29,724 nucleotides of DNA from positions 1-29,724 of the IMG/VR virus record IMGVR_UViG_3300045988_154091, one strand, 5' to 3'. Under the pieces are notes generated by a model. The model had not been told where the DNA came from, did not search any database, and saw only the letters and a list, made by a program, of their open reading frames with translations. Below, piece after piece: positions 1 to 29,724 of the stretch. A program made the position numbers and the translations under genes. Source of the stretch: a virus. The stretch's first letter is position 1, and every line of letters starts with the position of its first letter.

Positions 1-144
1 ATCAGGAAGGCGGTAGGCTAATGAGGGTCTACAAGCGCGACAGATGCGGGAAGTTCTTCAAGCGTGATGAACTGATGGTGATGACAGCGCCGATTCTTCC
101 TGTCTACTTCAACTTCAGGATTAAACGGCACGTCTGCGGCGATT
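1..144. repeat. Terminal direct repeat, identical to 29581-29724; circularisation overlap or terminal redundancy
   Basis: By eye the sequence at the window start (atcaggaaggcggtaggctaatgagggtctacaagcgcgacag...) is identical to the window end. Confidence 0.9.
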
Positions 145-700: not shown

Positions 701-865
701 ATGGACAACGAGACCATAAGCGAGCTTGCAGCCCATGCGCTGAGGGTGATAGCGGCGGTAACCGTCTGCGCATGCGCCGCGATAGCGGGGTGCGCGGTTG
801 CCATGACCGTGCTCGTTTACGCGGTGAAGGCGTTTGCCTGGGCGGTTGGCATAACGCCCGCATAG
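701..865 (+). CDS. Small membrane protein
   Basis: ATG at 701 in frame with ORF 332..865. Hydrophobic AAVTVCACAAIAGCAVAMTVLVYAV. Confidence 0.35.
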   Translation: MDNETISELAAHALRVIAAVTVCACAAIAGCAVAMTVLVYAVKAFAWAVGITPA

Positions 866-877
866 ACAGGCGATTAC

Positions 878-907
878 ATTAGGCGGTGGCTACGGCTGCC
901 GCCTTTT
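878..907 (+). terminator. Rho-independent terminator
   Basis: ggcggtggc-tacg-gctgccgcc hairpin (9-bp stem with two G-U pairs) followed by seven T residues. Confidence 0.7.
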
Positions 908-939
908 TTTGCGTGTGACGGCACCAAGACAATGGGAGC

Positions 940-2595
940 ATGTCGAAGGAGAAATGCACAGAGGATTTCATCGCCAACGCGGTGAAGCTGATGAACAGCG
1001 GGGCGCAGGGCAAGGACATCGCCCTGGCCCTCGGCGTGCGCGCCTCAACCCTCTCGACCTGGCTCAACCACCCGAGGACGGACAACCAGAAGAAACTGTC
1101 CGAAGCGATGAAAAAAGCCGAGGTGAACCGCACCACCGCGATGATCAACGCCGTCATGAAGGCTGGCATGACCAAGGACTGGAAGGCCGCGGCCTGGTGG
1201 CTGGAGCGCAACAAGCCGATGGAGTACAGCCTTAGCAACGCCCGCATGCAGCGCCTTATAGAGCAGCACGAGGCCGAGAACCCGCGCCCTGTGCTGGACA
1301 CCGCGCAGCTGGTTCCCCCGGTCTACTGGGACGTTTGGCGCGACATCATGCAGGGCGGGCACTCCACCTACGAGGCGCGCGGCGGGCGCGGCGGCCTGAA
1401 AACATCCATGTTCACGCTGGCTGCGGTGATGCTGATGCTGAACGACCCCAAGATGTGCGGCGTGGGCTTCCGACAGGTTAGCGCCACGATCAGAGACTCC
1501 ATCATGGCGGCCTTCATCAGCAGCATCCGCCGCCTTGGGGTTGAGCACGACTTCACCTGGACCTTCAACCCGATGGAGATCACGCGCAAGAGCACGGGCC
1601 AGGTGGTCATGTTCCGCGGCTTGGACGACCCAGAGAAGACGAAGTCGCTTCAGCTCCGCGACCCCGACATGTACATCGGGTTCGCGGTTTGGGAGGAGTT
1701 CAACCAGTTCAAGGGGATGGCACCCGTTCGCAAGGCCGAGCAGACCGTCAAGCGCGGCGCTGCGCCTCTGTTCCGAACCTTCCGAATGTGGAACACGCAT
1801 CCCGACTGCGAGCACTGGAGCAACGCCCATTTCGAGGAATCCCTGGAGGATCCCGACACCTACGCGCTGCAGGTCAACTACGACCAGGTTCCGCCAGAGT
1901 GGCTTGGCGAGGGCTTCCTGAAGGACGCGGCAAAGCTCAAAGCCGCCAGCCCCGAAGCCTACGACAACGAGTACATGGGCAAGACCACCAAGCTCACTGG
2001 CCGCGTGTTCGGCAACGTCGAGGACAGGGAGCTGGCACCTGGCGAGGAGCGCGGCTTCAAGTGGGTGCGCAACGGCATCGACTGGGGCTTCATGCAGGAC
2101 CCGTTCGTGTTCCTGCGTGTGGCGTACGACCGCAAGGCAGACGAGCTGTTCATCTTCGACGAGCTGTACAACACCGAGGTCCTGGACGCGCCGAACATCG
2201 CCGAGGTGCGGCGCAGGCTGGCGGAGCGGGACGCGCAGGGAAACATCCGCCTTGATTCCGATGGCGACCCCGTGATGCTGCGCAACAAGCCGGAGAACGA
2301 GATCCGCGCCGACGCCGCCGCCCCGAAGGACATAGCCACGTGGGCGAACGACGGCATGCGGATCATCGGGGCCTCCAAGCGGATTCCCGTTGCCGACGGC
2401 ATCCAGTGGCTGCGCAAGCGCCGCCGCATATGCATCGACCGCAAGCGCTGCCCGTTGGCATGGGCGGAGTTCACTCGGTACCGCGCCATGGAGGACGAGG
2501 AAGGCCGCTTCCAGGGCTTCCCCGACAAGGACAACCACGCGATCGATGCCGTGCGCTACGCGGCCTTCGACCTGATAAACGACCCGAGCCTGTAG
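940..2595 (+). CDS. terL: Terminase large subunit with fused N-terminal TerS-like HTH domain
   Basis: 551 aa. P-loop-like RGGRGGLKTS, Walker B-like IGFAVWEEF, and a C-terminal nuclease-like region (IDWGFMQDPFVFLRV...ELFIFDELY). The first ~95 aa (ALALGVRASTLSTWL...DWKAAAWWLERNKP) resemble small-terminase HTH domains. Confidence 0.8.
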   Translation: MSKEKCTEDFIANAVKLMNSGAQGKDIALALGVRASTLSTWLNHPRTDNQKKLSEAMKKAEVNRTTAMINAVMKAGMTKDWKAAAWWLERNKPMEYSLSNARMQRLIEQHEAENPRPVLDTAQLVPPVYWDVWRDIMQGGHSTYEARGGRGGLKTSMFTLAAVMLMLNDPKMCGVGFRQVSATIRDSIMAAFISSIRRLGVEHDFTWTFNPMEITRKSTGQVVMFRGLDDPEKTKSLQLRDPDMYIGFAVWEEFNQFKGMAPVRKAEQTVKRGAAPLFRTFRMWNTHPDCEHWSNAHFEESLEDPDTYALQVNYDQVPPEWLGEGFLKDAAKLKAASPEAYDNEYMGKTTKLTGRVFGNVEDRELAPGEERGFKWVRNGIDWGFMQDPFVFLRVAYDRKADELFIFDELYNTEVLDAPNIAEVRRRLAERDAQGNIRLDSDGDPVMLRNKPENEIRADAAAPKDIATWANDGMRIIGASKRIPVADGIQWLRKRRRICIDRKRCPLAWAEFTRYRAMEDEEGRFQGFPDKDNHAIDAVRYAAFDLINDPSL

Positions 2596-6506: not shown

Positions 6507-6851
6507 ATGGGAAAACTGACACCATCCAAAGAGCTGCGCACCGTGTACAAGGTGCTGAAGCGCATCCATGCGGCCGAGCAGCTGGAGGAGACCGACCCGG
6601 GCATGTTCGCGCCCGAGGTTTTCGACATCGATGCAGCGCAGCGCGACAGGATCATGGCGATGCTGCAGGCCGAGGGGCTTATCAACGGAGTCATCGTGCG
6701 CAAGTACGTGGGCCAGCGCCGCGAAACCGTGCTGATCGACTGGCAGGCTCTGGAAGTCACGCTGAGGGGCCTGCAGTACCTGGAGGAGAACAGCGCCATG
6801 CGCAGGGCCGCAGATGAAGCCAAGGGCATCGTGGGCGCGATCCGCCCGTAG
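6507..6851 (+). CDS. YjcQ-like phage protein (paralogue 1)
   Basis: 114 aa. RBS aaaggaga. The pattern ...MLQAEGLINGVIVRKYVGQ...LRGLQYLEENS resembles the YjcQ family. Confidence 0.5.
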   Translation: MGKLTPSKELRTVYKVLKRIHAAEQLEETDPGMFAPEVFDIDAAQRDRIMAMLQAEGLINGVIVRKYVGQRRETVLIDWQALEVTLRGLQYLEENSAMRRAADEAKGIVGAIRP

Positions 6852-6883
6852 CAGCACGAGACAGCCAAGCGAAAGGAACCGAG

Positions 6884-7255
6884 ATGGGCGCTGACCTCAA
6901 CACCGTTCTGTACAAGATCCTGCGATATGCGAACAAATGCCTGGAAGAGGGCGTGGAGCCCGATTTGGGAATCATGCGCGAGGTTGCCGACACCAACGAG
7001 CTGATGTTCTCCACGGCCTTGGAGCAGGCTTCGAAGCTCGGGCTGCTGGAGGGCGTTGTCGTGCGCAACTACGTGAGCGGCAACGGCAAGCCAGTCGTCT
7101 TCTCCCGGCACATGCACATCACCGTGGACGGCACCACGTACCTGGACGACAACTCCAAGATGAGGGAGGTGGCTGGCATCATGTCGGGAGTGTTCGAATC
7201 TTCCCTCTCCGGCTTCGTGTCCAACACCATCCTCCTGTCGATGGGAATCAGCTAG
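6884..7255 (+). CDS. YjcQ-like phage protein (paralogue 2)
   Basis: 123 aa. RBS aaaggaaccgag. A clear paralogue of 6507..6851 (LYKILRYA..., KLGLLEGVVVRNYVSG..., TTYLDDNS). Confidence 0.5.
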   Translation: MGADLNTVLYKILRYANKCLEEGVEPDLGIMREVADTNELMFSTALEQASKLGLLEGVVVRNYVSGNGKPVVFSRHMHITVDGTTYLDDNSKMREVAGIMSGVFESSLSGFVSNTILLSMGIS

Positions 7256-7451
7256 AGCCCGCCGAAAGTCCCCGAAACCGTCGCTCTCGCGTCCGTTTTT
7301 GCGGCTTGAACGCGTTTTTCGGGGCTGGAGTTGCACGTTTTGGGGCGTTTCGGGAAACGCGTAGGTACTTAATAAGCTCTTGGAAACTACCCAAATCCAC
7401 GTTGAACTACGCTTAATTGCGGAGAACCGCCGTTTCATTTCCTGAATGCTA

Positions 7452-7480
7452 TTGCGCGATTTCCCACAGTATACTATATT
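7452..7480 (+). promoter_or_regulatory. Candidate sigma70-like promoter for the low-GC cassette
   Basis: TTGCGC, 17-nt spacer, TATATT in an AT-rich intergenic region upstream of the RBS gaaggagg. Confidence 0.3.
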
Positions 7481-7507
7481 TCTTCATATAGTGAAGGAGG
7501 TGAAATC

Positions 7508-7690
7508 GTGTACTACCCAGCCAATAAGCGCTACGCGAAAAACAAGCTAGTGCGGGCAACTGCAAGCTTCAGCAGAATCAGCGATCCAGAAATATGCAAA
7601 TGGCTTGAGAGCAAAGACAACAAGTCCGGATACGTCAAGGAACTAATCAGGGCTGATTATGAGAAGCACAAAAAGCAAGAAGAAAACTAA
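7508..7690 (+). CDS. Small basic hypothetical protein (low GC; possible RHH/DNA-binding)
   Basis: GTG start 7 nt after the RBS gaaggagg. About 38% GC against about 64% for the genome. Lys-rich. Confidence 0.45.
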   Translation: MYYPANKRYAKNKLVRATASFSRISDPEICKWLESKDNKSGYVKELIRADYEKHKKQEEN

Positions 7691-13887: not shown

Positions 13888-16251
13888 GTGGCAGATGGCC
13901 GCGTTGTAATAGAGATCGATGCCGATTCCTCGAAGTTCTCCGCTGCGGTGGGGAAGCTCGGCGACACAGCGAAGCAGAGCCTCGGCACCGCCATAAAGGG
14001 CTCCTTCATCGGCAACCTGCTCGCAAACGCCTTCAGCAAGGCGTCGGGCGTCATATCCAGCAGCCTTGACGGCGCGATCAGCCGCGTGGACATCCTCAAC
14101 CAGTTCCCACGCGTGATGGAGCAGCTGGGCTACGGCGCAGACAGCGCCTCGGCCGCCATCGGCAAGATGAGCGACCACATCCAGGGGCTGCCAACGAAGC
14201 TCGACTCCATCGCGGGAAGCGTGCAGCGCGTCGTGCCGAAGTTCAAGGACGTTGGCAAGGCAACGGACGTCATGCTGGCGTTCAACGATGCCCTTGTTGC
14301 GGGCGGGCAGTCCGTGCAGGTGCAGGAAGCCGCGCTGGAGCAGTACGTGCAGGGCATCAGCAAGGGAAAGTTCGAGCTGGAGGAATGGCGCAGCATTCAA
14401 ACCGCAATGCCAGGCCAGCTCGATGCCGTCGCGCAGTCGATGCTCGGCGCCGGGAAATCATCGAACGACCTGTACGAGGCGCTGAAATCTGGCAAGGTCT
14501 CCGTTGACGACTTCTGCGACGCCTTCGTGAAGCTCGATTCCGAGGGAATCAACGGCATGGCATCGTTCGCCGAGCAGGCGAAGACCGGCTCAGCTGGCAT
14601 CGCGACCAGCATGAGCAACGCCGCCAACGCCGTTACCGTTCAGCTCGCCAACATAATCGACAAGATCAACGAGCACGGCGAGATAGCCGCTGGGTTCGAC
14701 GCGATCAAGCAGGCTGTTACCGAGTTCGGCGGGGCTGCGGTCAACGCAGTCGGCTGGGTGAAGGACAACTTCGGCACGATCGCGCCGATCGTTGCGGCGG
14801 TCGGTGCGGCTTTCACCGCCCTGCAGATCGTCCCAGCCATAATGCCAGCCGTCGGCGCGGTCAAGTCGCTTGTAGCGGTGGTACGCAGCGTCGGCGCGGC
14901 CTCCGTCGCGATCAAGGCGCTCGGCGGCGCGGTTGCAGCGGTCGGCGGCCCTGTAACCATCGTGATAGCCGCCATCGCGGCGCTGGTTGCCGTGTTCGCC
15001 ACGCTGTACGCCACGAACAGCGACTTCGCTTCCGCGGTGAACTCCGCCTGGTCCCAGATCCAGGCCGCGTTCGCTTCGGTGCTGCCGTCGTTGCAGCAGC
15101 TTGGCGCGGCCTTCTCCCAGATGGCGGCGGCGGTGCTTCCGTCCATCCAGCAGATAGCCACAACGCTGATCGAGCTTGGAGCGAGCATCATAAGCGCGCT
15201 GCTTCCCGTTATCCAGCAGATAGCCGAGGCCGTAACGGCTGCGCTGCCGACCATCATCAGCATCCTCACGACGGTGATAGGCGTGATCTCCGCCGTCATA
15301 TCGGCGGCCGTCTCGCTGGCTTCGGCGGTTCTGCCAGTCGTCGTGGCTGCGATCCAGACCGTTATCGACGTGGTAACGGCCGTGGTCTCCTTCTTCGCCA
15401 GCTTCGGGCAGGCGCTTGTTTCCGCAGCGCAGAGCGCCGCCGATTTCGTCACAAACGTCGGCTCCTTCCTAAGCGGGCTTCCTGGCGTTATATGGGGCTT
15501 CCTGACGGGCGCGCTATCCTTCGTGGCAAGCTTCGTCGGGCAGATGGCCGGCAACGCGATCCAGGCTGGATCCCAGTTCGTCAGCAACGTGGGAAGCGCG
15601 ATCTCGGCGGCTCCTGGGCGCATCTGGGGCGTTTTGAGCAGCGCGATCGGCCAGGCCGCAAGCTTCGTCGGGCAGATGGCCAGCAAGGCTTCGCAGGCAG
15701 GCCAGCAGTTCGCAAGCAACATCATCAACACGCTCTCCGGCATCCCTGGGCAGGTTGCAAGCATCGGCGGGCAGATCGTCAACGGCATAGCCAACGGCAT
15801 ACGCGGCGCTGCTGGTGCGGTTGTCTCCGCATTGGGCGGCGTTGTAAACCAAGCCGTCGAGCACGCTAAGAGCATGCTGGGCATCCACTCGCCCTCGCGC
15901 GTCATGCGCGACCTGATCGGCAAGAACATCGCGCGCGGCGTTGCCGTGGGCATCGAGGACGAGACGGCAACCGCGGTTAGCGCCGTGAGGGCCATGAGCG
16001 CCCAGGTGGTGGAAGCAGGCAACGCTTCCATGGAGATACCGCCCATAGAGGTTCAGAAGGCCGTTGCCGTGATGGACTCCACCACGCAGGAATCCGTGTT
16101 CGGCGATTCCTTCATGCAGGGCGTGCAGGCGATCACCGAGCGCCTCGACCTCATCTACGCGAAGCTGGACGAGATCAAGCAGGCAATACAGGAAGACAGG
16201 GAGGTGCGGATCGACAAGCGCGAGTTCGCACGCCTTGTGAGGGAGGTATAG
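13888..16251 (+). CDS. Tail tape measure protein
   Basis: 787 aa. Long Ala/Gly/Val-rich repetitive hydrophobic core with coiled-coil ends. Largest gene in the tail module. Confidence 0.8.
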   Translation: MADGRVVIEIDADSSKFSAAVGKLGDTAKQSLGTAIKGSFIGNLLANAFSKASGVISSSLDGAISRVDILNQFPRVMEQLGYGADSASAAIGKMSDHIQGLPTKLDSIAGSVQRVVPKFKDVGKATDVMLAFNDALVAGGQSVQVQEAALEQYVQGISKGKFELEEWRSIQTAMPGQLDAVAQSMLGAGKSSNDLYEALKSGKVSVDDFCDAFVKLDSEGINGMASFAEQAKTGSAGIATSMSNAANAVTVQLANIIDKINEHGEIAAGFDAIKQAVTEFGGAAVNAVGWVKDNFGTIAPIVAAVGAAFTALQIVPAIMPAVGAVKSLVAVVRSVGAASVAIKALGGAVAAVGGPVTIVIAAIAALVAVFATLYATNSDFASAVNSAWSQIQAAFASVLPSLQQLGAAFSQMAAAVLPSIQQIATTLIELGASIISALLPVIQQIAEAVTAALPTIISILTTVIGVISAVISAAVSLASAVLPVVVAAIQTVIDVVTAVVSFFASFGQALVSAAQSAADFVTNVGSFLSGLPGVIWGFLTGALSFVASFVGQMAGNAIQAGSQFVSNVGSAISAAPGRIWGVLSSAIGQAASFVGQMASKASQAGQQFASNIINTLSGIPGQVASIGGQIVNGIANGIRGAAGAVVSALGGVVNQAVEHAKSMLGIHSPSRVMRDLIGKNIARGVAVGIEDETATAVSAVRAMSAQVVEAGNASMEIPPIEVQKAVAVMDSTTQESVFGDSFMQGVQAITERLDLIYAKLDEIKQAIQEDREVRIDKREFARLVREV

Positions 16252-16253
16252 GC

Positions 16254-17102
16254 ATGCAGATAGCGATGGCCTACGAGGGCGGAAGCGGCGGGCGCGTGGA
16301 GTTCGGGGCAGACGGCGGAGAGCTTCACCTCTTCGAGAACGCCGCAAGGAACGCCAGCTGGAAGCACGACACCGCCAACGGGCGCATAACGCGCCTCTAC
16401 AAGGAGCCAGCCGAGATCGAGCTGAAGGTCGGCATAGCCGCGGCAACCGAGGAGCGCGGCCTTGCGCTTCGCGAGGAGCTGGTAACCGTCACCGAGCGCG
16501 ATGCGCTGAACTTCACCGCCGGCAAGCTCTGGTGCAACGGCTGGTACCTGCCTTGCTTCGTCACGGCGCGCAAGTACGGAGAGTGGTGGCACGATGGGCG
16601 CTTCTGCGAGTGCGAGCTGGGCATAGCCTGCGAGGAGCTGACGTGGTACCGCGCAGAGGAGCGCCACTTCTTCGCGATCGGAGAGGGCAGCTCCGCCGAT
16701 GCCGTGGACTACCCGCACGACTTCGCCTACGACTACGGCACCAGCCCGATTTCATCTTCAAAAATAGAGAACCAGTCCCTCTCCCCCGCCGATGCAGTCA
16801 TTCGCATGTACGGCCCGTGCAGCGAGCCGCACGTGACGATCGGAGGCAACGCCTACGGCGTGAAGGTGACGCTCGATCCGGGCGAGTACGTGGAGATAGA
16901 CACAAGGGCGCAGACGATCGTGAAGCACGGCCTCAGCGGCGCGCTGGACAACGTGTTCGGCAAGCGGTACCAAGGCGGCGAGGATTCCTCCTCATACGTC
17001 TTCAAGCAGGTTCCCAGCGGCGTTTCCGACGTTGCATCGCCCGGGGACTTCAGCTTCGACATCACAGTGTTCGAGCACCGCTCCGAGCCAGAATGGAGCT
17101 AG
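16254..17102 (+). CDS. Distal tail protein (Dit)
   Basis: 282 aa immediately after the tape measure gene. Confidence 0.55.
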   Translation: MQIAMAYEGGSGGRVEFGADGGELHLFENAARNASWKHDTANGRITRLYKEPAEIELKVGIAAATEERGLALREELVTVTERDALNFTAGKLWCNGWYLPCFVTARKYGEWWHDGRFCECELGIACEELTWYRAEERHFFAIGEGSSADAVDYPHDFAYDYGTSPISSSKIENQSLSPADAVIRMYGPCSEPHVTIGGNAYGVKVTLDPGEYVEIDTRAQTIVKHGLSGALDNVFGKRYQGGEDSSSYVFKQVPSGVSDVASPGDFSFDITVFEHRSEPEWS

Positions 17103-17105
17103 CCG

Positions 17106-18059
17106 ATGCTTATCGTATACGCAGATTCGAAAATGGCGGACATCCAGGCGCTGCGCCCCGTATCCATGGAGTTCGCCTTCGGCTCCGATGAGAACGACTT
17201 CCAAGTCGTCATGCCCAAGGAGGCGCCGCAGCTCGATGCCCACGGCTACGTTTACGTCGACGGGACCGAGTACGGCGGCATGGTGGACAACGTGGCCCAC
17301 GATGCAGAGACGGACCAGATGACCTACACGGGCGCAACGTGGCACGGCCTGCTGGAAGGCAAGGTCATATGCCCGCCAGCGGGCAGCGACTACCGAAGCG
17401 TGTCGGGAACTGTGAACGCCGCAATCGCATCGGTGCTTAACGCCATCGGGCTCGATTCCGTCATGAGGGCAGCCGACACCTCTGGAGCATCGGTCTCCTA
17501 CCGCTTCAGCCGCTACACTGACGCGTACAGCGGCCTGCGGGCGATGCTCGCAACGGTCGGGCGGACACTGGTCATCACCTGCTCTGGCGGCACCGTGGAG
17601 GTTTCCAGTGCCCCAACGCGCACCCTGGACGCACGGGCCAGCACCGAGGTTTACGGAACGCCCGTGAACCACCTGGTTTGCCTTGGCAAGGGCGAGCTGT
17701 CGAACCGAACGGTCATCCACCTTTACGCCGATGCCAAGGGAAACGTGAGCACAACGCAGACGCTGAAGGGCGCGCTGGAGCGCACCAATGTTTACGACTA
17801 CAGCAACGCCGAGGCAGACGAGCTTCGCCAGAAGGGCATCAAGAAGCTCTCTGGCTATCAGGTTTTCCGCAAGGCCGACCTGCTCGACCTGAAAGGCGTT
17901 GAGCTGCATGTCGACGATGTGCTTGCCGCCTACGACAGCGTGACGGGCGTGAGCACAAGCGAGCCTGTATCCAAGGTCATAGCATCGTTCGACCGCCTGG
18001 GCTTCAAGACCGTCAAGTACGAATCTGGCGATTCCAAGGCATCGGCAACCGACTACTAG
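17106..18059 (+). CDS. Tail-associated protein (Tal-like / baseplate hub)
   Basis: 317 aa following Dit. Confidence 0.45.
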   Translation: MLIVYADSKMADIQALRPVSMEFAFGSDENDFQVVMPKEAPQLDAHGYVYVDGTEYGGMVDNVAHDAETDQMTYTGATWHGLLEGKVICPPAGSDYRSVSGTVNAAIASVLNAIGLDSVMRAADTSGASVSYRFSRYTDAYSGLRAMLATVGRTLVITCSGGTVEVSSAPTRTLDARASTEVYGTPVNHLVCLGKGELSNRTVIHLYADAKGNVSTTQTLKGALERTNVYDYSNAEADELRQKGIKKLSGYQVFRKADLLDLKGVELHVDDVLAAYDSVTGVSTSEPVSKVIASFDRLGFKTVKYESGDSKASATDY

Positions 18060-18121
18060 GCTGCCACGTCGCCCTGTGACGCTGAAAGCATCATCATCGC
18101 AACGAATGAAAGGACATCACC

Positions 18122-18886
18122 ATGGCAATCGAGCTCGTTACTGGCAAGGCTGGCGTTCCGCACGTCGACAGCGAGGACGTTGGCGCATTCAACGCGTACT
18201 CACTCGGCAGCGGGGCATACATCATGAGCGGCTGCAAGGTCACGGCGAAGAGCGCCAACAGCATCAGCATCGCGGCTGGCGAGATCCTGTGGGAAGGCCG
18301 CCACATCCGCGTGAAGGGCAGCGGCGAGAGCCTTGCGGTCGACAACGGGCAGACGGGCTACAACCGCCGCGACCTCATCACGCTGAACTACGACAAGGAC
18401 TCCAACGGCATCGAGAGCGCTTCCTTCAAAATCGTGAAGGGCACCGCCACCACAGGCACGGCAGCGGACCCATCAGTGAAGGTCGGCAGCATACTTGCTG
18501 GCGACACGTCCGCCGTTATCCCGTTCGCACGCATCGCGTTGAGCGGCCTTTCGGTTGCAACGCCTACCGTCCTGCTCGGCAGCCTGCCCAGCCTTGCCTC
18601 CCTTCGGGATTCCGTATCCTCAATATGCTCAAAGAACTTCACGGTCTCGCAATCGAGTACGCCTTACGGTGGGACACTGGAGAAGGTTATCGACATATCG
18701 ATGGAAGGATACAAACCCCTCGGTATTGTCGGCTTTACGAGCAATCATAATGGCAGTTTCCCCTTTACGGAATGCTGCTTTATCGACGATACCCACGCAA
18801 GGGTTGCCTTTATGAACCTCGTCCCAAACCAGGGCGACTGGGGCTACTCGGAAGCGACAATAACCGTCCTCTATATCAAGCAGTGA
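18122..18886 (+). CDS. Tail fiber / receptor-binding protein: constant N-terminus plus currently expressed variable C-terminal cassette 1
   Basis: 254 aa. RBS aaaggacatcacc. GC falls sharply after about 18600. A recombination core sits at 18605-18619 (junction RDSVS) and another overlaps the stop codon. Confidence 0.6.
   Translation: MAIELVTGKAGVPHVDSEDVGAFNAYSLGSGAYIMSGCKVTAKSANSISIAAGEILWEGRHIRVKGSGESLAVDNGQTGYNRRDLITLNYDKDSNGIESASFKIVKGTATTGTAADPSVKVGSILAGDTSAVIPFARIALSGLSVATPTVLLGSLPSLASLRDSVSSICSKNFTVSQSSTPYGGTLEKVIDISMEGYKPLGIVGFTSNHNGSFPFTECCFIDDTHARVAFMNLVPNQGDWGYSEATITVLYIKQ
18605..18619 (+). other. Recombination site A: core cgggattccgtatcc at the constant/variable junction of the RBP gene
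   Basis: 12/12 identity (14/15 extended) with sites C and B. It encodes R-D-S-V-S in the RBP frame. Confidence 0.6.
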
Positions 18887-18897
18887 TTCCGTATCCC
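18883..18897 (+). other. Recombination site C: core gtgattccgtatccc overlapping the RBP stop codon
   Basis: 15/15 identity with the reverse complement of site B. In the cassette frame it reads D-S-V-S and continues without a stop into ORF 18936..19193. Confidence 0.6.
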
Positions 18898-19193
18898 CAT
18901 CGAGCTTTCTGAACAGCGAATCCCTGAAGATAACCATGATAGGCAAGCTGGCCATCGTACACGCCAACTGGCTCCCATGCGCAGTCAGCGGTGGTGGATG
19001 GAAGAGCATCTATACTCTTCCAGACGAGCTGAAGCCCGAGAATGAGATCTACGAGAACGCATTAGCATCGACCTCGGCATCTGATTTCTATCCCACCATC
19101 ATGCGCATAGGCAATGACGGCGTTATACAGGTAAACGCTATGGGCAAGTCATTGCACAACATTTACTTCTCGGCAGTATACGTGGTAGCCTGA
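18898..19193 (+). CDS. Promoterless alternative RBP C-terminal cassette 3, direct orientation
   Basis: Open from site C in the DSVS frame (DSVSPSSFLNSESLKITMIGKLAIVHANW...) through ORF 18936..19193. Paralogous to the C-terminus of 18122..18886 (YKPLGIVGFTSNHNG versus MIGKLAIVHANWLP). Low GC. No RBS of its own. Confidence 0.45.
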
Positions 19194-19264
19194 CGCGCCA
19201 TGACCTTCTGATGCCACACCCGACTGCCCTCCCCACGTTACACGGGGCAGGTTGTCTACACGGT

Positions 19265-19645
19265 TTAGCGCACCCACGTAAACGAGAAGCGCATTTCAGA
19301 ACCATCTCCAAGATTAGTGTCTTTGATCATCCATAGATGGGGATCGGAGCCGCCGCAAAGGCGGCAACCCACGGGCTTGTTCTCGCCTCTGATGTTCCTT
19401 TGCTGCTCGCTGTCGAACTCTACAGGTAGGTATTCGCCGATCTTCGCGAGACCGTCAGAGTCAACCAACTCGGTAAATTCGTTTATAGTACGCGTGGTGA
19501 TTGCGTTGATATAGAGCGCGCAGAAGTTTCCGCAGACATTGAGCTGAACAGGCGCTTTTGAGTTCCCGCGAGTCGTCATGCATGGCGAGTTGAAGTAAAA
19601 CGTTTTCGTCTGGGATACGGAATCACGCCCCGACGATCCGTTCAC
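19265..19645 (-). CDS. Promoterless alternative RBP C-terminal cassette 2, inverted orientation
   Basis: The minus-strand ORF begins, at its upstream end, with the same core that encodes RDSVS (GSSGRDSVSQTKTF...). Its C-terminal part is paralogous to cassette 1 (VGCRLCGGSDPHLWMIKDTNLGDG versus FTECCFIDDTHARVAFMNLVPNQGDWG). Low GC. Confidence 0.5.
   Translation of the reverse strand: MNGSSGRDSVSQTKTFYFNSPCMTTRGNSKAPVQLNVCGNFCALYINAITTRTINEFTELVDSDGLAKIGEYLPVEFDSEQQRNIRGENKPVGCRLCGGSDPHLWMIKDTNLGDGSEMRFSFTWVR
19612..19628 (-). other. Recombination site B: inverted core (reverse complement cgtgattccgtatccca)
   Basis: Inverted copy of the site A/C core. It overlaps the 3' end of the recombinase gene and the upstream end of the inverted cassette. 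Confidence 0.6.
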
Positions 19646-20504
19646 TCACCAGCGCCTGAACGCCCGCGCAAATCTTGCGCGTCGGCTGAAGGTAATACTG
19701 CGCGGTTGTGTTGATTGAGCCGTGCCCCAACATCATCGCCACAGCTTCGATCCCTGCACCCGCTTCGACCGCGATCGTCGCCCACGTGTGGCGGCGCTGG
19801 TACATGGAGACGTACGGCAGCGCTTGCCTTCTGCACCATGCCTTGATGTGCCTTGCGACCTGCGATGGCTTGAGCGCGCCGATCACGCGCTCCTTCGGTC
19901 TGCTTTGCTCGTGCCAAATTGCGCGCAACCGATCAAGGGCGAAGCGCGGTAGGTAAACCGTCCGTTCCGACTTCTCAGTTTTCGGTAGATACACGTGAAG
20001 CAGCCCTCTCACCTCCTGCAACGTGCGGCGCACATGCACGGCACCTGACCTCATGTCGATGTCGCTCCACTTCATGCCGTAGGTTTCGCCCGGTCTCAAT
20101 CCGAGCACCGACGAGAGGATCACGGCAGGCTCCAGCTCGTGCCCCCAGAAGCCGCGGAGCGTGGTCGCCACCTCATCGGCTGTGAGCACGTGCTTCTCTG
20201 GCTTCGGCTTGCGTGGCAACTCGATCCCTTGCGTGGGGTCCCAGATGCGTATGCCGAGGTTGGCGATCGACCAGCGGATCACCTGGCGCAACGTCTTGAA
20301 CGCCTTCGCGGCAGCGCCTGGCAGCTCAAAGCTGTCCACCCACTCCTGTATCGCCTCATGCGTTATGTCGGCTATCTCCATGTCCCCGAACCTTGGCACC
20401 ACATGCAGGCGCAGGGCGCTCGCGTAGCCTTCGCACGTGTTGGCGCGGCGGCGCTTGCGCTTGGCTGGCAGGTAGTGGCTGTAGGCGATTTCTTTCAGGT
20501 TCAT
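19623..20504 (-). CDS. Small tyrosine site-specific recombinase; candidate tail-fiber cassette invertase (Rci/Xer-like)
   Basis: ORF 19623..20642 on the minus strand. The likely true start is the ATG at 20504 (MNLKEIAY...), preceded by a purine-rich RBS. Catalytic-region motifs VHVRRTL, RRHTWAT (HxxR) and LGHGSINTTAQYY (Tyr). 293 aa. Confidence 0.7.
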   Translation of the reverse strand: MNLKEIAYSHYLPAKRKRRRANTCEGYASALRLHVVPRFGDMEIADITHEAIQEWVDSFELPGAAAKAFKTLRQVIRWSIANLGIRIWDPTQGIELPRKPKPEKHVLTADEVATTLRGFWGHELEPAVILSSVLGLRPGETYGMKWSDIDMRSGAVHVRRTLQEVRGLLHVYLPKTEKSERTVYLPRFALDRLRAIWHEQSRPKERVIGALKPSQVARHIKAWCRRQALPYVSMYQRRHTWATIAVEAGAGIEAVAMMLGHGSINTTAQYYLQPTRKICAGVQALVSERIVGA

Positions 20505-20651
20505 TTCCTCTTCCTTCCCGCCTGAAAATCCCAGGCATAAAAGCACGTCAACTGCATATTCGCTCGCCTGGGATTTTCTGGAGGCGAAAAGCGCCGCCAG
20601 TGACGCGAACCGCACACTCGAACGGTCAAGAGACGCTTCCAACGCAGGGAG

Positions 20652-20981
20652 GTGATGGACTTGCCAGAAGTGTCTTCAATGGTCGGCTGGGTACTTGCTC
20701 CGCTTCTCTCCGCCTGCGTGGGCTACCTGCTCGCTGCGGTGCGCGGATTCGCCAAGCGAGGCAGCCAGCACGACAAGGCGATGGAGCAGGGAATGCGCGC
20801 ACTCTTGCGCCAGCAGCTCATCGACTACCACCGCGACTACGTTGTGTCTGGGCACGCTTGCCCCGTCTGCGTGAAGGAGCAGGCTACCAGCGTGTACGCC
20901 GCCTACCACGACCTCGGAGGCAACGGAACAGGAACAAAGCTGTACCAGGAAATCATGAACACACATGTAGAGGAGAATTGA
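20652..20981 (+). CDS. Holin-like membrane protein (single N-terminal TM)
   Basis: 109 aa. N-terminal TM MVGWVLAPLLSACVGYLLAAV followed by a charged C-terminus. Sits immediately upstream of the holin/endolysin genes. Confidence 0.4.
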   Translation: MMDLPEVSSMVGWVLAPLLSACVGYLLAAVRGFAKRGSQHDKAMEQGMRALLRQQLIDYHRDYVVSGHACPVCVKEQATSVYAAYHDLGGNGTGTKLYQEIMNTHVEEN

Positions 20982-21226
20982 TGGAACAAGAAGAAGACAA
21001 GAAGCCGCCCCAATGGCTCATGCCTAACAAGGTGTACGACGGGCTGAAGTGGGTCGGCCTGATCGTGTGCCCCGCGGCGGCGACCGCGGTGCTAGGCATC
21101 GGCGGCGCGTTCGGGTGGCAGGACGCGGCGGCAGCAGCAACGGTGATCACCACCGTCGGCACCTTCATCGGCGCATGCATCGGCATCAGCGCCACGGCTA
21201 AAGGCGGCGGCGATGGAGGGCGATAA
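20981..21226 (+). CDS. Holin (two TM helices)
   Basis: tgATG overlap with the upstream gene. 81 aa with two hydrophobic helices (LKWVGLIVCPAAATAVLGIGGAFGW and AATVITTVGTFIGACIGISA). Confidence 0.55.
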   Translation: MEQEEDKKPPQWLMPNKVYDGLKWVGLIVCPAAATAVLGIGGAFGWQDAAAAATVITTVGTFIGACIGISATAKGGGDGGR

Positions 21227-22346
21227 GAAGCAGAAGCGCGCGTTCGCGCAGGTCGTCGCGATGCTCTCCGCCCTGATGCTGGCGGCAACGCTCATGGTTC
21301 CAGCCAGCGCCTACGCCTACACGCAGAAGGAGACGATCTGCAACCAAGGCCACGGCAGCATCACGCCTCAGTACCTTGTCATTCATGAGACGGCAAACCC
21401 AGGGGCAAGCGCATACAACCACTATCGCCTGTACTCCCGTGGCTACTCTTATGCCGTGCATTACGTCATGGAGCTTGACGGCAGCGTGGTCTACCACACG
21501 ATGGCGGACAACCGAAAGAGCTGGTCGGTCGGCAACGGAAACTCGCGTGTTGTGAGCATCGAGCTTGCCCACGCAACCAACAAGGCCGATTTCGACAAGC
21601 AATGGGAGCAGGCCGTCAAGTGGGCAGGCGACTACCTCAATAGCCGCGGCTGGGGCATCGACCGCATGATCAGCCACAACGACGCTCGCCTCATGTTCGG
21701 CGGCACCGACCATCAGGATCCGCTGAGCTACTTCGCGAGCTACGGCAAGAGCTGGAACCAGTTCAAGTCCGCTGTGCGCGATTACATGGGCACTGGCCAG
21801 ACTGGCGGCACCGTGGAGCAGGGCGAGGCACAGCAGCCAACTGCCAGCGCATCCAGCTCCAATAGCATGGGCGTGTACACCACCACCGCATCGGCACTGT
21901 GCGTGCGCAAGGGCCCTGGGACCGGCTACGCCCGTGTCTCCTATGGCGGCTTGACGGCCAACGCGAAGCAGCACGCCTACACGAACGGCTGCTTGAAGCA
22001 GGGAACCCGAGTGACCGTGATGGAGGTGCGAGGCAACTGGGCGCGTATCCCAAGCGGCTGGATCTGCTTGCAGTACACCACGTATGGTGGCGGCAACGCT
22101 ACAGCGACCACGGCATCTAGCACGGGCACGTACCGCGTGACCGCGTCAGCGCTCAACGTGCGCTATGGCGCAGGCACCGGCTACTCCAAGGTTCCGTACC
22201 GCAACCTCACAGCCAACGCGAAGCAGCACGCCTACGGTAATGGCTGCCTGAAGCGCGGAACCCGCGTCACCGTTAGCGAGGTGCGCGGCAACTGGGCGCG
22301 TATCCCCAGCGGCTGGGTCAGCATGGACTACCTGGCTCGCGTCTAA
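21213..22346 (+). CDS. Endolysin: signal-peptide N-acetylmuramoyl-L-alanine amidase (Amidase_2/PGRP) with two C-terminal SH3b-like repeats
   Basis: N-terminal signal-like KRAFAQVVAMLSALMLAATLMVPASAYA. Amidase motifs HETANPGASAYNH ... SWSVGNGNSRVVSIELAH ... ISHNDARL. Two roughly 75-aa repeats (…TASALNVRYGAGTGY…GTRVTV.EVRGNWARIPSGW…). Confidence 0.75.
   Translation: MEGDKKQKRAFAQVVAMLSALMLAATLMVPASAYAYTQKETICNQGHGSITPQYLVIHETANPGASAYNHYRLYSRGYSYAVHYVMELDGSVVYHTMADNRKSWSVGNGNSRVVSIELAHATNKADFDKQWEQAVKWAGDYLNSRGWGIDRMISHNDARLMFGGTDHQDPLSYFASYGKSWNQFKSAVRDYMGTGQTGGTVEQGEAQQPTASASSSNSMGVYTTTASALCVRKGPGTGYARVSYGGLTANAKQHAYTNGCLKQGTRVTVMEVRGNWARIPSGWICLQYTTYGGGNATATTASSTGTYRVTASALNVRYGAGTGYSKVPYRNLTANAKQHAYGNGCLKRGTRVTVSEVRGNWARIPSGWVSMDYLARV
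21866..22343 (+). repeat. Tandem duplicated SH3b-encoding units within the endolysin gene (about 21866-22095 and about 22122-22343)
   Basis: The two repeat units are similar at nucleotide and protein level (e.g. ggcaactgggcgcgtatccc(a/c)agcggctgg). Confidence 0.6.
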
Positions 22347-22986: not shown

Positions 22987-24090
22987 CTATTCCGACGGAT
23001 TGCCCAACACGGATACGACGCTTGCAAGCTGCTCGGCGCTCATGCGGTCGTAGTGCTGGAAGGTTACCGTCGGCGTTGCATGCCCCAGAAGCTTCGCGAC
23101 GGTGCCCAGATCGACCCCCTTGGCGTGGAGCATGGTGGCGTAGCTATTGCGCAGGTTCATCCACGGCACGTAGCGGTGCGGCTTGCCGAAGTGCCACCGC
23201 TTGTACGCCGCACTCATAAGATCAGGATTCAGCGGCTCGCAGTCGTCGCCCTCGCAAACCCAGGTGTCCCCCAGCCGCTCGAAGCTTATTTCACGCAACC
23301 TCTGGGCGTAGGGCATCGGTATGACGGCTTCGCGGTAGCTCCCCTCGGTCTTCAGCTTCACGATGCGCACGCCGCCCTTGGCGTTCTGCGCCCCGCGCTG
23401 CACGCGCACGACGGCGTAGCCGTCCTGGAAGCCAATGTCTCCCCATTGCGCCCCGAACGCCTCCTCACGGCGAAGCCCTCCGAACGCCGACAGTATGAAC
23501 GGCGCTTCCCAGCGCTCCCCCCTGGCATCGGCCAGGATGGCGGCGAGCTCCGCTTCCGTATGCACCGATTCGGACACCTCGCGGCTGCTCTTCTGCGGCT
23601 TGGGCGGCAGCTGATAGCGCTTTGTGAAGGGTGACTCGTTGCACATGTCGTTGTCGACGGCGAACGAGAACATGGCGCGGAACACGGCGAGCGCCTTCTT
23701 CGCGCTGCCGTAGGTCATGCCGTCAAGCCACTCCTGAACCTCGGCCTTCCTGATGGAATCCAGCTCGCGCCCCCCGAAGGTCGGCTCTATCGCGGTGCGG
23801 TAGGCGCTCTCGTAGCCCTCTACGGTGGAAGGAGCAAGACGCTCGATGTGCTTGCTGTAATGCTGCCCCCAAAGCCTGGAAACCGTCATGACGGCAGGGC
23901 TTGCGCGGAACCGATCGTGCTCTATGCGCAGCTCCGCCAGGCGCTTCGATGCGTCCTTCTTGGTTCCGTGCACCGTCTCGTACCCCTGGCGGCGCTTGCC
24001 TGTGCTGGGGTCGCTGGGCAGCGGGTAGCGCAAGCGCCAGATGCCAGGGCCAGCCGCCTGGATGCTGCCCCATGCGCTTCTCCTGGCCAT
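22987..24090 (-). CDS. int: Phage integrase (tyrosine recombinase)
   Basis: 367 aa. C-terminal catalytic motifs RIVKLKTEGSYREAVIP, LRNSYATMLHAKGVD (HxxR-like) and LLGHATPTVTFQHY (Tyr). Next to attP and co-oriented with the repressor gene. Confidence 0.8.
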   Translation of the reverse strand: MARRSAWGSIQAAGPGIWRLRYPLPSDPSTGKRRQGYETVHGTKKDASKRLAELRIEHDRFRASPAVMTVSRLWGQHYSKHIERLAPSTVEGYESAYRTAIEPTFGGRELDSIRKAEVQEWLDGMTYGSAKKALAVFRAMFSFAVDNDMCNESPFTKRYQLPPKPQKSSREVSESVHTEAELAAILADARGERWEAPFILSAFGGLRREEAFGAQWGDIGFQDGYAVVRVQRGAQNAKGGVRIVKLKTEGSYREAVIPMPYAQRLREISFERLGDTWVCEGDDCEPLNPDLMSAAYKRWHFGKPHRYVPWMNLRNSYATMLHAKGVDLGTVAKLLGHATPTVTFQHYDRMSAEQLASVVSVLGNPSE

Positions 24091-24093
24091 GGG

Positions 24094-24732
24094 CTAGCGC
24101 CTTCCGAAGTCCATGGAGGCGTACACGGCGCGCCCAAGGAAGCGCAGGCTCGGGGCGTTGGGGTCGGTCTGATCGACGACTATGCGGTGGAAGGAATCGC
24201 TGGTGCTCTCTGGGGAAAGTATGGCAAGGCCGTCCGTGAGCTTCAGGCGGCGCAGGATGGGGCTGCCGCCGCCGACCTCGGCAAGGGCCAAGTCACCGTC
24301 GGCAACATCGCGTGACGTGTCTATGAGCACGTGGGAGCCAGGCGCGAAAGCCAGGTTCATGCTCTCGTCCTCCTGGGTTACGAAGAAGTTGCCCTCACGG
24401 CAGTACTTTGCCGGGCACGGTATCGGCTCTTCCCCGCCCTCGACATGCAGGAAGGAATCGGCAGGAACGGGCTTGGCCTGCGCGGGATCGGTTGCCGCGC
24501 TGATGCCGCTTCGCTTTGCGAGGTAGCCGCTCTCTGACACGAGATCGTCGACTGAAACGCCGAACAGCTCCGCAATGTGCGCCAGCATTTTCTGGCGCGG
24601 CGGTATGTTCCTGGTTTCCCATCCGCTTACGGTAGTAATCGTCACACCTACTTTTTCGGCGAACTCCGTTTGCGTCAAATCGTTATTCTCACGCAGCGCC
24701 TTTATGTTTCGCCCAGTCGCTGATCTCTCCAT
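24094..24732 (-). CDS. CI-like repressor: XRE-family HTH plus S24 (LexA-like) peptidase domain
   Basis: ORF 24094..24735. ATG at 24732. N-terminal HTH LTQTEFAEKVGVTITTVSGWE. The C-terminal region has an S24-like Ser motif (DESM) and Lys (LRRLKL). The stop codon lies 3 nt upstream of the int start. Confidence 0.7.
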   Translation of the reverse strand: MERSATGRNIKALRENNDLTQTEFAEKVGVTITTVSGWETRNIPPRQKMLAHIAELFGVSVDDLVSESGYLAKRSGISAATDPAQAKPVPADSFLHVEGGEEPIPCPAKYCREGNFFVTQEDESMNLAFAPGSHVLIDTSRDVADGDLALAEVGGGSPILRRLKLTDGLAILSPESTSDSFHRIVVDQTDPNAPSLRFLGRAVYASMDFGRR

Positions 24733-24735
24733 CAA

Positions 24736-26854: not shown

Positions 26855-27332
26855 TCCAATCACAGCCGACGAGGAACTGGCGCTGATGCGCGTTCTGAAG
26901 AAGCGCATAGACAACCGCGTGAAGGAGCTTGAAGGCGAGGCAAAGGACGAGCTTCTTGGCTTCTACGACACCTGCGGCATCGACCGCCGCCAGGTAAAGG
27001 CCAACGGGCAGAACGTGGGCACCATCTCGGTGGTGTTCAGCAAGCCGAAGGCGGCAATCGACCCGCTCCGCAAGGCCAAGGCGCTGGACTACCTGGCATC
27101 GTGCGGGCTCACCGAGGAAACGCCCGTGAAGGGCTGGGAGGAGCGCTTCGCCCAGTGCGGGGACGACATTATCGACTGCAAGACTGGCGAGGTCGTGGAC
27201 TTCCTGCTTTGGGAGCCGCAGCGACCCAAGGCGGTGCGCACGGCGGTTAAGGAGCAGGAAGCGGTGGCGGCGCTTAGGCCGCTGGTAAACGGCATGAGCG
27301 CAACGGCGCTGTTGGAAGGAGAAGAGCAGTAA
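26847..27332 (+). CDS. Hypothetical protein upstream of recT (possibly Gp157-like)
   Basis: ATG at 26847 (MANPITADEE...) after the RBS aagggaaaaag. About 161 aa. Its position next to recT is the only basis for the Gp157 suggestion. Confidence 0.35.
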   Translation: MANPITADEELALMRVLKKRIDNRVKELEGEAKDELLGFYDTCGIDRRQVKANGQNVGTISVVFSKPKAAIDPLRKAKALDYLASCGLTEETPVKGWEERFAQCGDDIIDCKTGEVVDFLLWEPQRPKAVRTAVKEQEAVAALRPLVNGMSATALLEGEEQ

Positions 27333-28258
27333 TGACAGAGGAAATCGCCAAATACGAGACGGACGGCGGGCAGGAGATCGAGCTGTCAGCGCAGGTCGTG
27401 CGCGACGTGTGCGCGCAGGGCAACGCAAAGGTGACCGACAAGGAGGCATGGGAGTTCATCCAACTTTGCAAGGCGCACAGGCTCAACCCCTTCATCCGAG
27501 AAGCCTACCTGGTGAAGTACGGCAGCAACGCCACCATCATCACGGGCAAGGACGTATTCACCAAGCGCGCAGCCCGCAACGAGAACTGCGAGGGCTTCCG
27601 CGCCGGTGTCAGCGTGCTTAACTCCGCTGGCCAGATCATCGACCGCGAAGGCTCCGCGCTCTTCCCCCAGATCGGCGAGATGCTTTTAGGCGGATGGGCT
27701 GAAGTATACATGCGCGGGTACCAGGTGCCCATCAAGGACACCGTAAGCCTTGCGGAGTACAGCACTGGCAAGAGCGGATGGGCGAAGATGCCTGGCACGA
27801 TGATACGCAAGGTCGCCCTGGTGCACGCCCTGCGCGAGGCGATGCCAGAGGAGTTCGGCGGCCTGTACGACAGCGCCGAGATGGACCAGGCGCACATGGG
27901 CACCGCGCGCCCGCAGCAGCCGCAGCAGCAGCCCGAGGCGGCCTACGAGCCGCCAGAGCCCGAGCAGCCGAGCGAAACCCCAACCGAGCAGCGTTTGGGG
28001 CAGATCGCCGAATCCGTGGAGTTCCCAAGCGGCGAGGAAGAGCGCAGAGCCGCCGAAGAGCGCCTGCGCGGGATGTTCATCGAGGGCAAGCAGGCGGGCT
28101 TCGACCTCAAGGGCTTCCACGCCTACGCACGCCAGGCCCATGGCTGCGACTACCTCCAGATGACCACCGACCAGCTGACCGCCTGCGCCGACGAGTTCAA
28201 GCGCCGCCTTGACCGCTTCCAGCAGGCAAGCGGGGAGGTCGAGCACGTATGGGAGTAG
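27332..28258 (+). CDS. recT: RecT-family single-strand annealing protein with extended C-terminal domain
   Basis: LNPFIREAYLVKYGSNATIITGKDVF ... WAKMPGTMIRKVALVHALREAMPEEFGGLY matches the RecT core. A Q/P/E-rich linker (QPQQQPEAAYEPPEPEQP) precedes an extra ~90-aa C-terminal domain. Confidence 0.7.
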   Translation: MTEEIAKYETDGGQEIELSAQVVRDVCAQGNAKVTDKEAWEFIQLCKAHRLNPFIREAYLVKYGSNATIITGKDVFTKRAARNENCEGFRAGVSVLNSAGQIIDREGSALFPQIGEMLLGGWAEVYMRGYQVPIKDTVSLAEYSTGKSGWAKMPGTMIRKVALVHALREAMPEEFGGLYDSAEMDQAHMGTARPQQPQQQPEAAYEPPEPEQPSETPTEQRLGQIAESVEFPSGEEERRAAEERLRGMFIEGKQAGFDLKGFHAYARQAHGCDYLQMTTDQLTACADEFKRRLDRFQQASGEVEHVWE

Positions 28259-29445: not shown

Positions 29446-29604
29446 ATGGAGCACAGGTGCACCCAGCTGGAGGAGCTGGACAAGGACGGCGAGTACCAGG
29501 TCGAGACCACGCGCGCGGGCGGCTGGGGGCTGTACGCCACCGTCAGCCGCCGCCTCACCGAGCTGGACAAGGTAGCGGAGGGAATCAGGAAGGCGGTAGG
29601 CTAA
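29446..29604 (+). CDS. Hypothetical small protein (52 aa)
   Basis: ATG after the RBS gaaaggagcaagcc. The stop TAA overlaps the ATG of the junction-spanning ORF. Confidence 0.35.
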   Translation: MEHRCTQLEELDKDGEYQVETTRAGGWGLYATVSRRLTELDKVAEGIRKAVG

Positions 29605-29724
29605 TGAGGGTCTACAAGCGCGACAGATGCGGGAAGTTCTTCAAGCGTGATGAACTGATGGTGATGACAGCGCCGATTCTTCCTGTCTACTTCAACTTCA
29701 GGATTAAACGGCACGTCTGCGGCG
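29581..29724. repeat. Second copy of the terminal direct repeat
   Basis: Identical to 1-144. Confidence 0.9.

Follow-up and report, generated by a model that had tools for sequence, protein, structure and literature searches.

The phage sequence analysed here (29,724 nucleotides; IMG/VR record IMGVR_UViG_3300045988_154091, hereafter the window) carries a gene for a receptor-binding protein (RBP), three short crossover sites (rix A, B and C), three C-terminal cassettes (V1, V2 and V3) and the tyrosine recombinase gene rin. Very probably, these elements form a Rin-type shufflon that switches the RBP C-terminus among the three cassettes. The system is of a kind already described, the Rin shufflon (PMC6109161, PMC8778435), and adds no new mechanistic category. 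An earlier note on this DNA had proposed that the RBP C-terminus is switched among several cassettes by a tyrosine recombinase dedicated to the task, and that proposal is supported by the domains of the encoded proteins and by recombinant junctions and fusion genes found in other assemblies.

The elements are arranged in the window as Rc-A-V1>-C-V3> <V2-B-<rin, where Rc is the constant N-terminal part of the RBP gene, a configuration that would express V1. In the proposed mechanism, rix (core GATTCCGTATCC) links Rc, within the RBP gene, to whichever of the three promoterless cassettes forms the C-terminus, and Rin would pair rix sites lying in inverted orientation and invert the DNA between them. 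Inversion between sites A and B (A x B) would yield Rc-V2, with the predicted junctions CTTCGGGATTCCGTATCCCAGACGAAAACG (Rc-V2) and GGGGCGTGATTCCGTATCCTCAATATGCTC (rin end-V1'), and a further A x C' inversion would yield Rc-V3. Inversion between C and B would be silent, flipping the V3/V2 segment only, and is predicted to leave the junctions ATCAAGCAGTGATTCCGTATCCCAGACGAAAACG (V1 end-V2) and GGGGCGTGATTCCGTATCCCCATCGAGCTTTC (rin end-V3). In total, four DNA states and three RBP isoforms would be available, and switching would change the cell-surface glycan or the host strain to which the phage adsorbs. We infer that inversion still takes place in this phage with Rin as its catalyst, and that host range or adsorption specificity changes as a result.

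Crossover sites, cassettes and recombinase of the module

The 12-mer GATTCCGTATCC is exact in all three rix sites, twice in direct orientation (18608-18619 and 18885-18896, plus strand) and once inverted (19613-19624, minus strand). The longer 15-mer GTGATTCCGTATCCC is exact at two places only, sites C and B (Table 1), and the third copy, GGGATTCCGTATCCT at site A, has two mismatches to it. The three core copies of the earlier note thus stand as a shared 12-mer, two direct and one inverted, but as a 15-mer the core is exact at only two of them. For the 8-mer TTCCGTAT, 0.18 occurrences are expected in the window and five are present, a count reached by 0/100 shuffles. Its two other copies, at 23554 and 24878, were considered as extra rix sites and rejected, since they are without the conserved flanks (A at -1, CC at +8/+9); we take them to be chance occurrences.

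Over 96 rix sites from 15 loci, the consensus is R-N-G-A-TTCCGTAT-C-C-C. The 8-mer was the criterion by which these sites were selected, and the informative conservation is therefore in the flanks, where 95/96 sites have A at -1, 95-96/96 have CC at +8/+9 and 86/96 have C at +10. The motif is not palindromic, and the sequence farther to the left is unconserved over the same 96 sites. As judged from this conservation pattern, rix is a short asymmetric site. It is read in two frames: GAT TCC GTA TCC encodes the DSVS joint, and G TGA TTC supplies the stop codon of both V1 and rin. Every rix encodes DSVS, and each cassette fusion is therefore in frame. Because rix doubles as stop and joint, cassettes can be strung head to tail, as happens in larger shufflons (for example, L009 2798-5794). 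Larger shufflons also contain back-to-back inverted rix pairs, with the 8-mers 13 nt apart (AGATACGGAAT-ACCCATCCAG-GATTCCGTATCCC), which divide adjacent invertible segments (L054 133-161, L039 5680-5708 and L060 327-355); the window has none.

At site A, the GC content drops from 0.635 (18400-18599) to 0.49-0.50 (18600-18899), and it remains at 0.49-0.555 up to ~19600, which agrees with the constant/variable junction that had been placed there. The claims that site C overlaps the RBP stop codon and that all three sites encode the same DSVS junction frame were likewise borne out, the former by the position of the TGA codon and the latter by the translations of V1, V2 and V3. Translated from site C, V3 opens with DSVSPSSFLNSE and ends in AVYVVA and a stop; V2, translated from site B on the minus strand (19627-19265), opens with RDSVSQTKTFYFNSPC and ends in FSFTWVR and a stop. 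Gene callers report open reading frames (ORFs) from internal ATG codons in V3 (85 aa) and V2 (104 aa), most plausibly an artefact of silent cassettes being open. The stretch 17900-20800 showed no promoter-like or terminator-like sites. A bidirectional terminator between V3 and V2 was considered and dropped, there being no terminator-like site and a spacer that folds no better than shuffles (z = +0.78).

The cassettes had been described as paralogous to the current C-terminus, and this description was not supported at the sequence level: BLASTP among the three revealed no similarity at E <= 1e-3, and they belong to three separate sequence classes. The sole link found between a window cassette and another expressed C-terminus class is that of V3, a distant member of such a class (hhalign probability 93%, E 2.4e-7). 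Pfam contains no family matching the RBP or the cassettes, and a PDB sequence search with the RBP profile gave no match. The structure model of the RBP in its V1 form resembles the RBPs of lactococcal phages 1358 and p2 as well as H-type lectins. The comparison at protein and structure level that the earlier note had suggested thus showed no mutual sequence similarity among the cassettes, but it did match the RBP model to phage RBPs and H-type lectins. In the favoured interpretation, the cassettes serve as receptor-binding head domains, and for V1 the model suggests one of H-type lectin character.

Rin contains the Pfam domains Phage_integrase (3e-16) and Phage_int_SAM_3 (SAM-like core-binding, residues 8-58). 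The protein aligns to XerA/XerD, and its catalytic motifs hold R137, R238, H261 and Y270. Its identity to the phage integrase (22987-24090) is 31%, and the integrase is longer by ~66 residues at the N-terminus. By these alignments, Rin is an armless Xer-like tyrosine recombinase separate from the phage integrase. The earlier note had located a second tyrosine recombinase gene on the minus strand abutting site B, and both the Phage_integrase domain and the stop codon inside site B confirm this. No match to a serine recombinase was obtained among the scanned proteins of the region.

Recombinant arrangements and cassette sharing in other assemblies

The A x B state is present in locus L033, the contig encoding protein P0024, in which window positions 18885-19627 are inverted at 98.8% identity and abut Rc. 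The junction is the hybrid site CGGGATTCCGTATCCCAAACG, composed of the left flank of A and the right flank of B, and the contig stops at the next rix. The Rc-V2 fusion exists as an open gene in P0024 (V2 99% identical to that of the window at the amino acid level) and in P0018 (96%), and V2 is also expressed on a different Rc in L009. The predicted outcome of A-by-B inversion, Rc joined to cassette 2, is thus found in these two genes and in the inverted segment of L033. The C x B state is present in L060, where the order is V1-C-[V2> <V3]-B-rin 3' end, with both predicted junctions verbatim and 1 mismatch in 714 bp between the flipped segment and the window. In L054, V3 rather than V2 adjoins rin. 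The V3-spacer-V2 stretch is kept as a single invertible segment in many loci.

A metagenome DNA scan identified two further Rc types to which V3 is joined at DSVS with the reading frame kept, one in L049 (ORF 822-1733, minus strand) and one in L050 (ORF 6684-7514, plus strand); the V3 junction pattern had 0 matches in IMG/VR. The predicted A-by-C' route to a cassette 3 fusion therefore has counterparts on other Rc types, but none on the Rc type of the window.

The Logan assembly of SRR3993048, the presumed source sample, contains two contigs (L035 and L037) that are 100% identical to the window. They overlap by exactly 30 nt (k-1) at 18868-18897, which puts a branch of the assembly graph at the final base of the core in site C. 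A subpopulation with the C x B inversion would be expected to produce such a branch, and we regard it as suggestive only.

A search with Rc alone retrieved ~45 proteins with an Rc at least 92% identical; RDSVS is the joint in all of them, and 16 sequence classes are represented among their C-termini. In larger relatives, as many as 12 rix sites are found beside a Rin that is 72-94% identical to that of the window. L009 has ten direct and one inverted rix and L040-L045 have 8-12 sites, and across these loci V1, V2 and V3 are found in all positions and both orientations with respect to Rc and Rin. At least three Rc types, 35-55% identical, bear the same cassettes.

The cassettes are far more similar among loci than the genes around them. 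DNA identity in the V3/V2 segment (18898-19611, 714 bp) is 95-99.9% across the 14 loci that hold the whole segment, and it reaches 99.4-99.9% in several loci (L043, L054, L055, L060, L039 and others) in which rin is 83-91% and the lysin gene 74-80% identical. Identity in V1 is 93.5-97.3% among loci. The corresponding backbone values are 72-91% for full-length rin and 70-80% for lysin, and the window Rc is undetectable at the DNA level in most loci. L043 has 1/714 mismatches in V3/V2 versus 130/878 in rin (p = 3e-34). The steps in identity coincide with rix sites, and in L060 a further step separates V1 (96.2%) from V3/V2 (99.9%; p = 1.5e-5). That cassette DNA is far more conserved than the backbone points to a shared, horizontally exchanged cassette pool, and the pattern of identities implies that cassette segments have recently spread horizontally from one phage lineage to another. 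We put forward only tentatively that rix-bounded cassettes constitute a pool exchanged among divergent Coriobacteriia phages by Rin-mediated recombination at rix between genomes, in an integron-like manner that would go beyond shuffling within one genome; the exchange may be site-specific or may proceed by short-homology recombination. The window also encodes a RecT-like single-strand annealing protein (27332-28258; PHROG 2760, E = 3e-48), which could drive short-homology exchange among co-resident phages and bears on the spread of cassettes.

Some relatives have a decayed rin. In L008 (5764-6316), a deletion runs from the middle of V2 through most of rin and leaves the first ~28-34 rin codons; two direct rix sites are retained, with the RBP fixed in the V1 state. 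In L046 (3861-4100) and L048 (1220-1297), the match to rin covers no more than its first ~80 codons and in each case lies beside a rix. L039 has rin in two separate ORFs (62 + 232 aa).

Alternative explanations and genomic setting

Several observations weigh against an active Rin shufflon in this phage. The alternative arrangements rest on other assemblies, not on reads or experiments with the phage itself. Sites A and C are direct repeats, making deletion of V1 formally possible. The search of the protein database with V3 returned only free-standing V3 ORFs and no fusion to the Rc type of the window. The AlphaFold model of Rc-V2 (P0024, 4-sequence alignment) has a pLDDT (predicted local distance difference test) of 30 and allows no inference on the V2 fold, and the effect on host range is entirely inferred. 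The SRR3993048 assembly is unbroken at A and B, and it is also broken at 23137 inside the integrase gene; on both grounds the Logan break at site C, considered as evidence of inversion within the sample, was judged ambiguous.

The arrangements could instead be a frozen mosaic produced by occasional recombination between phages at the conserved DSVS-coding joint, either homologous or mediated by the RecT-like protein, with a recombinase that does something else or is inactive on these sites. All of the alternative arrangements come from different samples or phages and not from one population, the phage does encode a RecT-like annealing protein, cassette segments clearly move between backbones, and locked states exist in the loci with a truncated or deleted rin (L008, L046 and L048), all of which would suit this explanation. 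We nevertheless consider it improbable, because the window has an intact rin with every catalytic motif and three intact rix cores, and because the silent, start-less cassettes remain open and share the frame of the joint, a state that is sensible only if they are periodically expressed. The difference between L060 and the window is, moreover, an exact reciprocal inversion between two 15-bp sites with a near-identical segment between them, and switching has been seen at the level of reads in the homologous system of Bifidobacterium (PMC6109161). 

A different activity of the recombinase would make rix the boundaries of cassette gain and loss: with direct repeats as its main substrate, it would cut out the cassettes between rix sites as circles and integrate such circles, as in integrons, and an A x C deletion would then leave the junction CTTCGGGATTCCGTATCCCCATCGAGC. 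The direct orientation of A and C is compatible with this, as are the mostly direct sites of larger relatives such as L009, the great variation in cassette content among shufflons, the far stronger conservation of cassettes than of backbones and the shifts of identity at rix boundaries seen in L060. Where near-identical segments differ, however, the differences are inversions (L033, L054 and L060), and a cassette encoded on the other strand needs an inversion before it can be expressed. The R64 shufflon, an analogous system, does not recombine direct sites, owing to the asymmetry of its sites. Circular cassette junctions did not come to light, though no search was made for them. This explanation appears to us very unlikely, and switching by inversion at rix remains the interpretation that we favour.

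The ends of the window (1-141 and 29584-29724) are identical, forming an exact 141-bp terminal direct repeat, which shows that the window is a circularly assembled complete phage genome of 29,583 bp. Its overall GC content is 61%, and no tRNA genes were found in it. The host phage is a small temperate siphovirus, and the module lies within its tail module: genes for tape measure, Dit-like and minor tail proteins lie directly upstream (Table 1), placing the 254-aa protein at the usual siphoviral RBP position. The order of lysin (21213-22346), integrase (22987-24090, minus strand) and repressor (24094-24735, minus strand) genes is that of attP, the excised form, so the phage was probably excised or replicating when sampled. 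One source labels the window as uncultured Senegalimassilia sp. The sole BLASTN match in the INPHARED phage collection was weak, covering 158 nt of Bifidobacterium phage PMBT6.

The inverted repeat upstream of rin folds as an RNA hairpin (-38.8 kcal/mol, z = -2.7) whose stem arms are invariant in 7 divergent loci, whereas the loop and flanks vary. On the rin strand, a U-run closes the hairpin directly ahead of the ribosome-binding site. A possible role is that of an attenuator or operator holding rin expression at a low level.

Table 1 Positions of the proposed switching module and of the tail genes upstream of it in the window
Feature	Position	Strand	Remarks
Tape measure protein gene	13888-16251		upstream of RBP gene
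Dit-like protein gene	16254-17102		upstream of RBP gene
Minor tail protein gene	17106-18059		upstream of RBP gene
RBP ORF	18122-18886	+	254 aa; ...SLRDSVS|SICSK... at site A; TGA stop 18884-18886 inside site C
Rc, constant N-terminal part of RBP gene	18122-18607	+	
rix site A (cGgGATTCCGTATCCt)	18606-18620	+	within RBP gene at constant/variable junction; encodes RDSVS; GC drop here
V1, cassette now expressed (SICSKNFTV...LYIKQ, stop)	18620-18886	+	TGA stop inside rix C
rix site C (GTGATTCCGTATCCC)	18883-18897	+	direct relative to A; overlaps RBP stop codon; starts V3
V3, silent cassette (DSVSPSSFLNSESLKITMIGKLAIV...AVYVVA, stop)	18885-19193	+	DSVS frame; no start codon at 5' end
Spacer between convergent V3 and V2	19194-19264		71 nt
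V2, silent cassette (RDSVSQTKTFYFNSPCMTTRG...FSFTWVR, stop)	19265-19627	-	
rix site B (GTGATTCCGTATCCC)	19612-19626	-	inverted relative to A and C; starts V2; holds rin stop codon
rin, tyrosine recombinase (invertase) gene	19623-20504	-	293 aa; TGA stop inside site B
Inverted repeat (AAAATCCCAGG ... CCTGGGATTTT)	20518-20584	-	between presumed rin promoter region and rin ribosome-binding site

Comparison with known systems

The value of these results is confirmatory, in that they extend the Rin shufflon to a complete 29.6-kb genome assigned to Senegalimassilia. Public assemblies alone show that the predicted recombinant junctions and fusion proteins exist, and they suggest a large cassette repertoire, in which a single constant domain carries at least 16 C-terminal classes and divergent phages share near-identical cassettes. 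The findings bear on how gut Coriobacteriia phages track host surface diversity and on the engineering of RBP swaps at the natural DSVS joint.

Rin shufflons were reported by Mavrich et al. 2018 (Sci Rep 8:12772, PMC6109161) in dnaJ2 prophages of Bifidobacterium breve and longum. The features given there are a constant part Rc, dissimilar variable cassettes (Rv), an 11-bp asymmetric rix (TTCCCTAACCC) and an armless tyrosine invertase, with one rix within the RBP gene, another just after it and a rix upstream of each Rv; inversion variants were detected in reads of both prophage and virion DNA (Bifidobacterium phage Bb423phi1). Buttimer et al. 2022 (Microorganisms 10:195, PMC8778435) described a Rin shufflon in Eggerthella lenta clade 1 prophages, with the crossover repeat 5'-ttccgtat-3' and Rv proteins bearing H-type lectin domains. 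In the window, an armless recombinase lies beside the cassettes, each cassette has an asymmetric rix, and Rc is accompanied by start-less, dissimilar cassettes within the tail module. Inverted arrangements that break at rix are found between assemblies (A x B in L033 and C x B in L060; also L054, L049 and L050).

The closest likeness is to the E. lenta system. Compared from the published description (PMC8778435), its 8-bp repeat ttccgtat is identical to the window core. Both systems combine Rc and small Rv cassettes with an adjacent tyrosine recombinase distinct from the integrase, both have one repeat inside the RBP gene and one just past its stop codon, and both show H-type lectin character. 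The host class, Coriobacteriia, is also the same, and the recombinase of an Eggerthella metagenome-assembled genome is 92% identical to Rin of the window. The window differs in being labelled uncultured Senegalimassilia and not E. lenta. With three cassettes and three rix, it represents a minimal set, related loci having up to 12 rix.

The Bifidobacterium system shares with the window the armless tyrosine invertase, Rc with dissimilar Rv, the asymmetric rix, the two direct rix in and after the RBP gene and an Rc that resembles the RBP of lactococcal phage 1358. Its rix (TTCCCTAACCC) differs from that of the window (TTCCGTATCCC) at 2/11 positions; the published sequence has no exact occurrence in any locus compared, although related variants do occur. 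The recombinase homologues from Bifidobacterium genomes and IMG/VR are only 42-46% identical to Rin, and the two Bifidobacterium homologues checked (L003 and L012) adjoin 2-3 direct and 1 inverted repeats of ATTCCGTAACCC or GGGATTCCGCAACC. Inversion in Bifidobacterium has been seen in reads, whereas the window system is known from assemblies.

The shufflon of R64/IncI1, a proteobacterial plasmid, uses the tyrosine recombinase Rci and 19-bp sfx sites to vary pilV, the tip adhesin of a conjugative pilus. It resembles the window system in relying on a tyrosine recombinase and on multiple inversions among short asymmetric sites, which swap the C-terminus of a surface adhesin that sets partner specificity. 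In sfx, as in rix, only one arm and the core are conserved. The target is pilV and not a phage RBP, however, and the sfx sequence is unrelated to rix. Gin of Mu, Cin of P1, Pin of e14 and Min of p15B are serine invertases that act at 26-bp crossover sites with a Fis-dependent enhancer. Like the window module, these systems use phage-encoded inversion to swap the receptor-recognising C-terminus of a tail fibre and thereby alter host range, and Min also carries out multiple, shufflon-like inversions. They differ in employing a serine invertase, as opposed to the tyrosine recombinase of the window (Pfam Phage_integrase). The window system thus works like the R64 shufflon and like Min/Gin/Cin but is a member of neither group.

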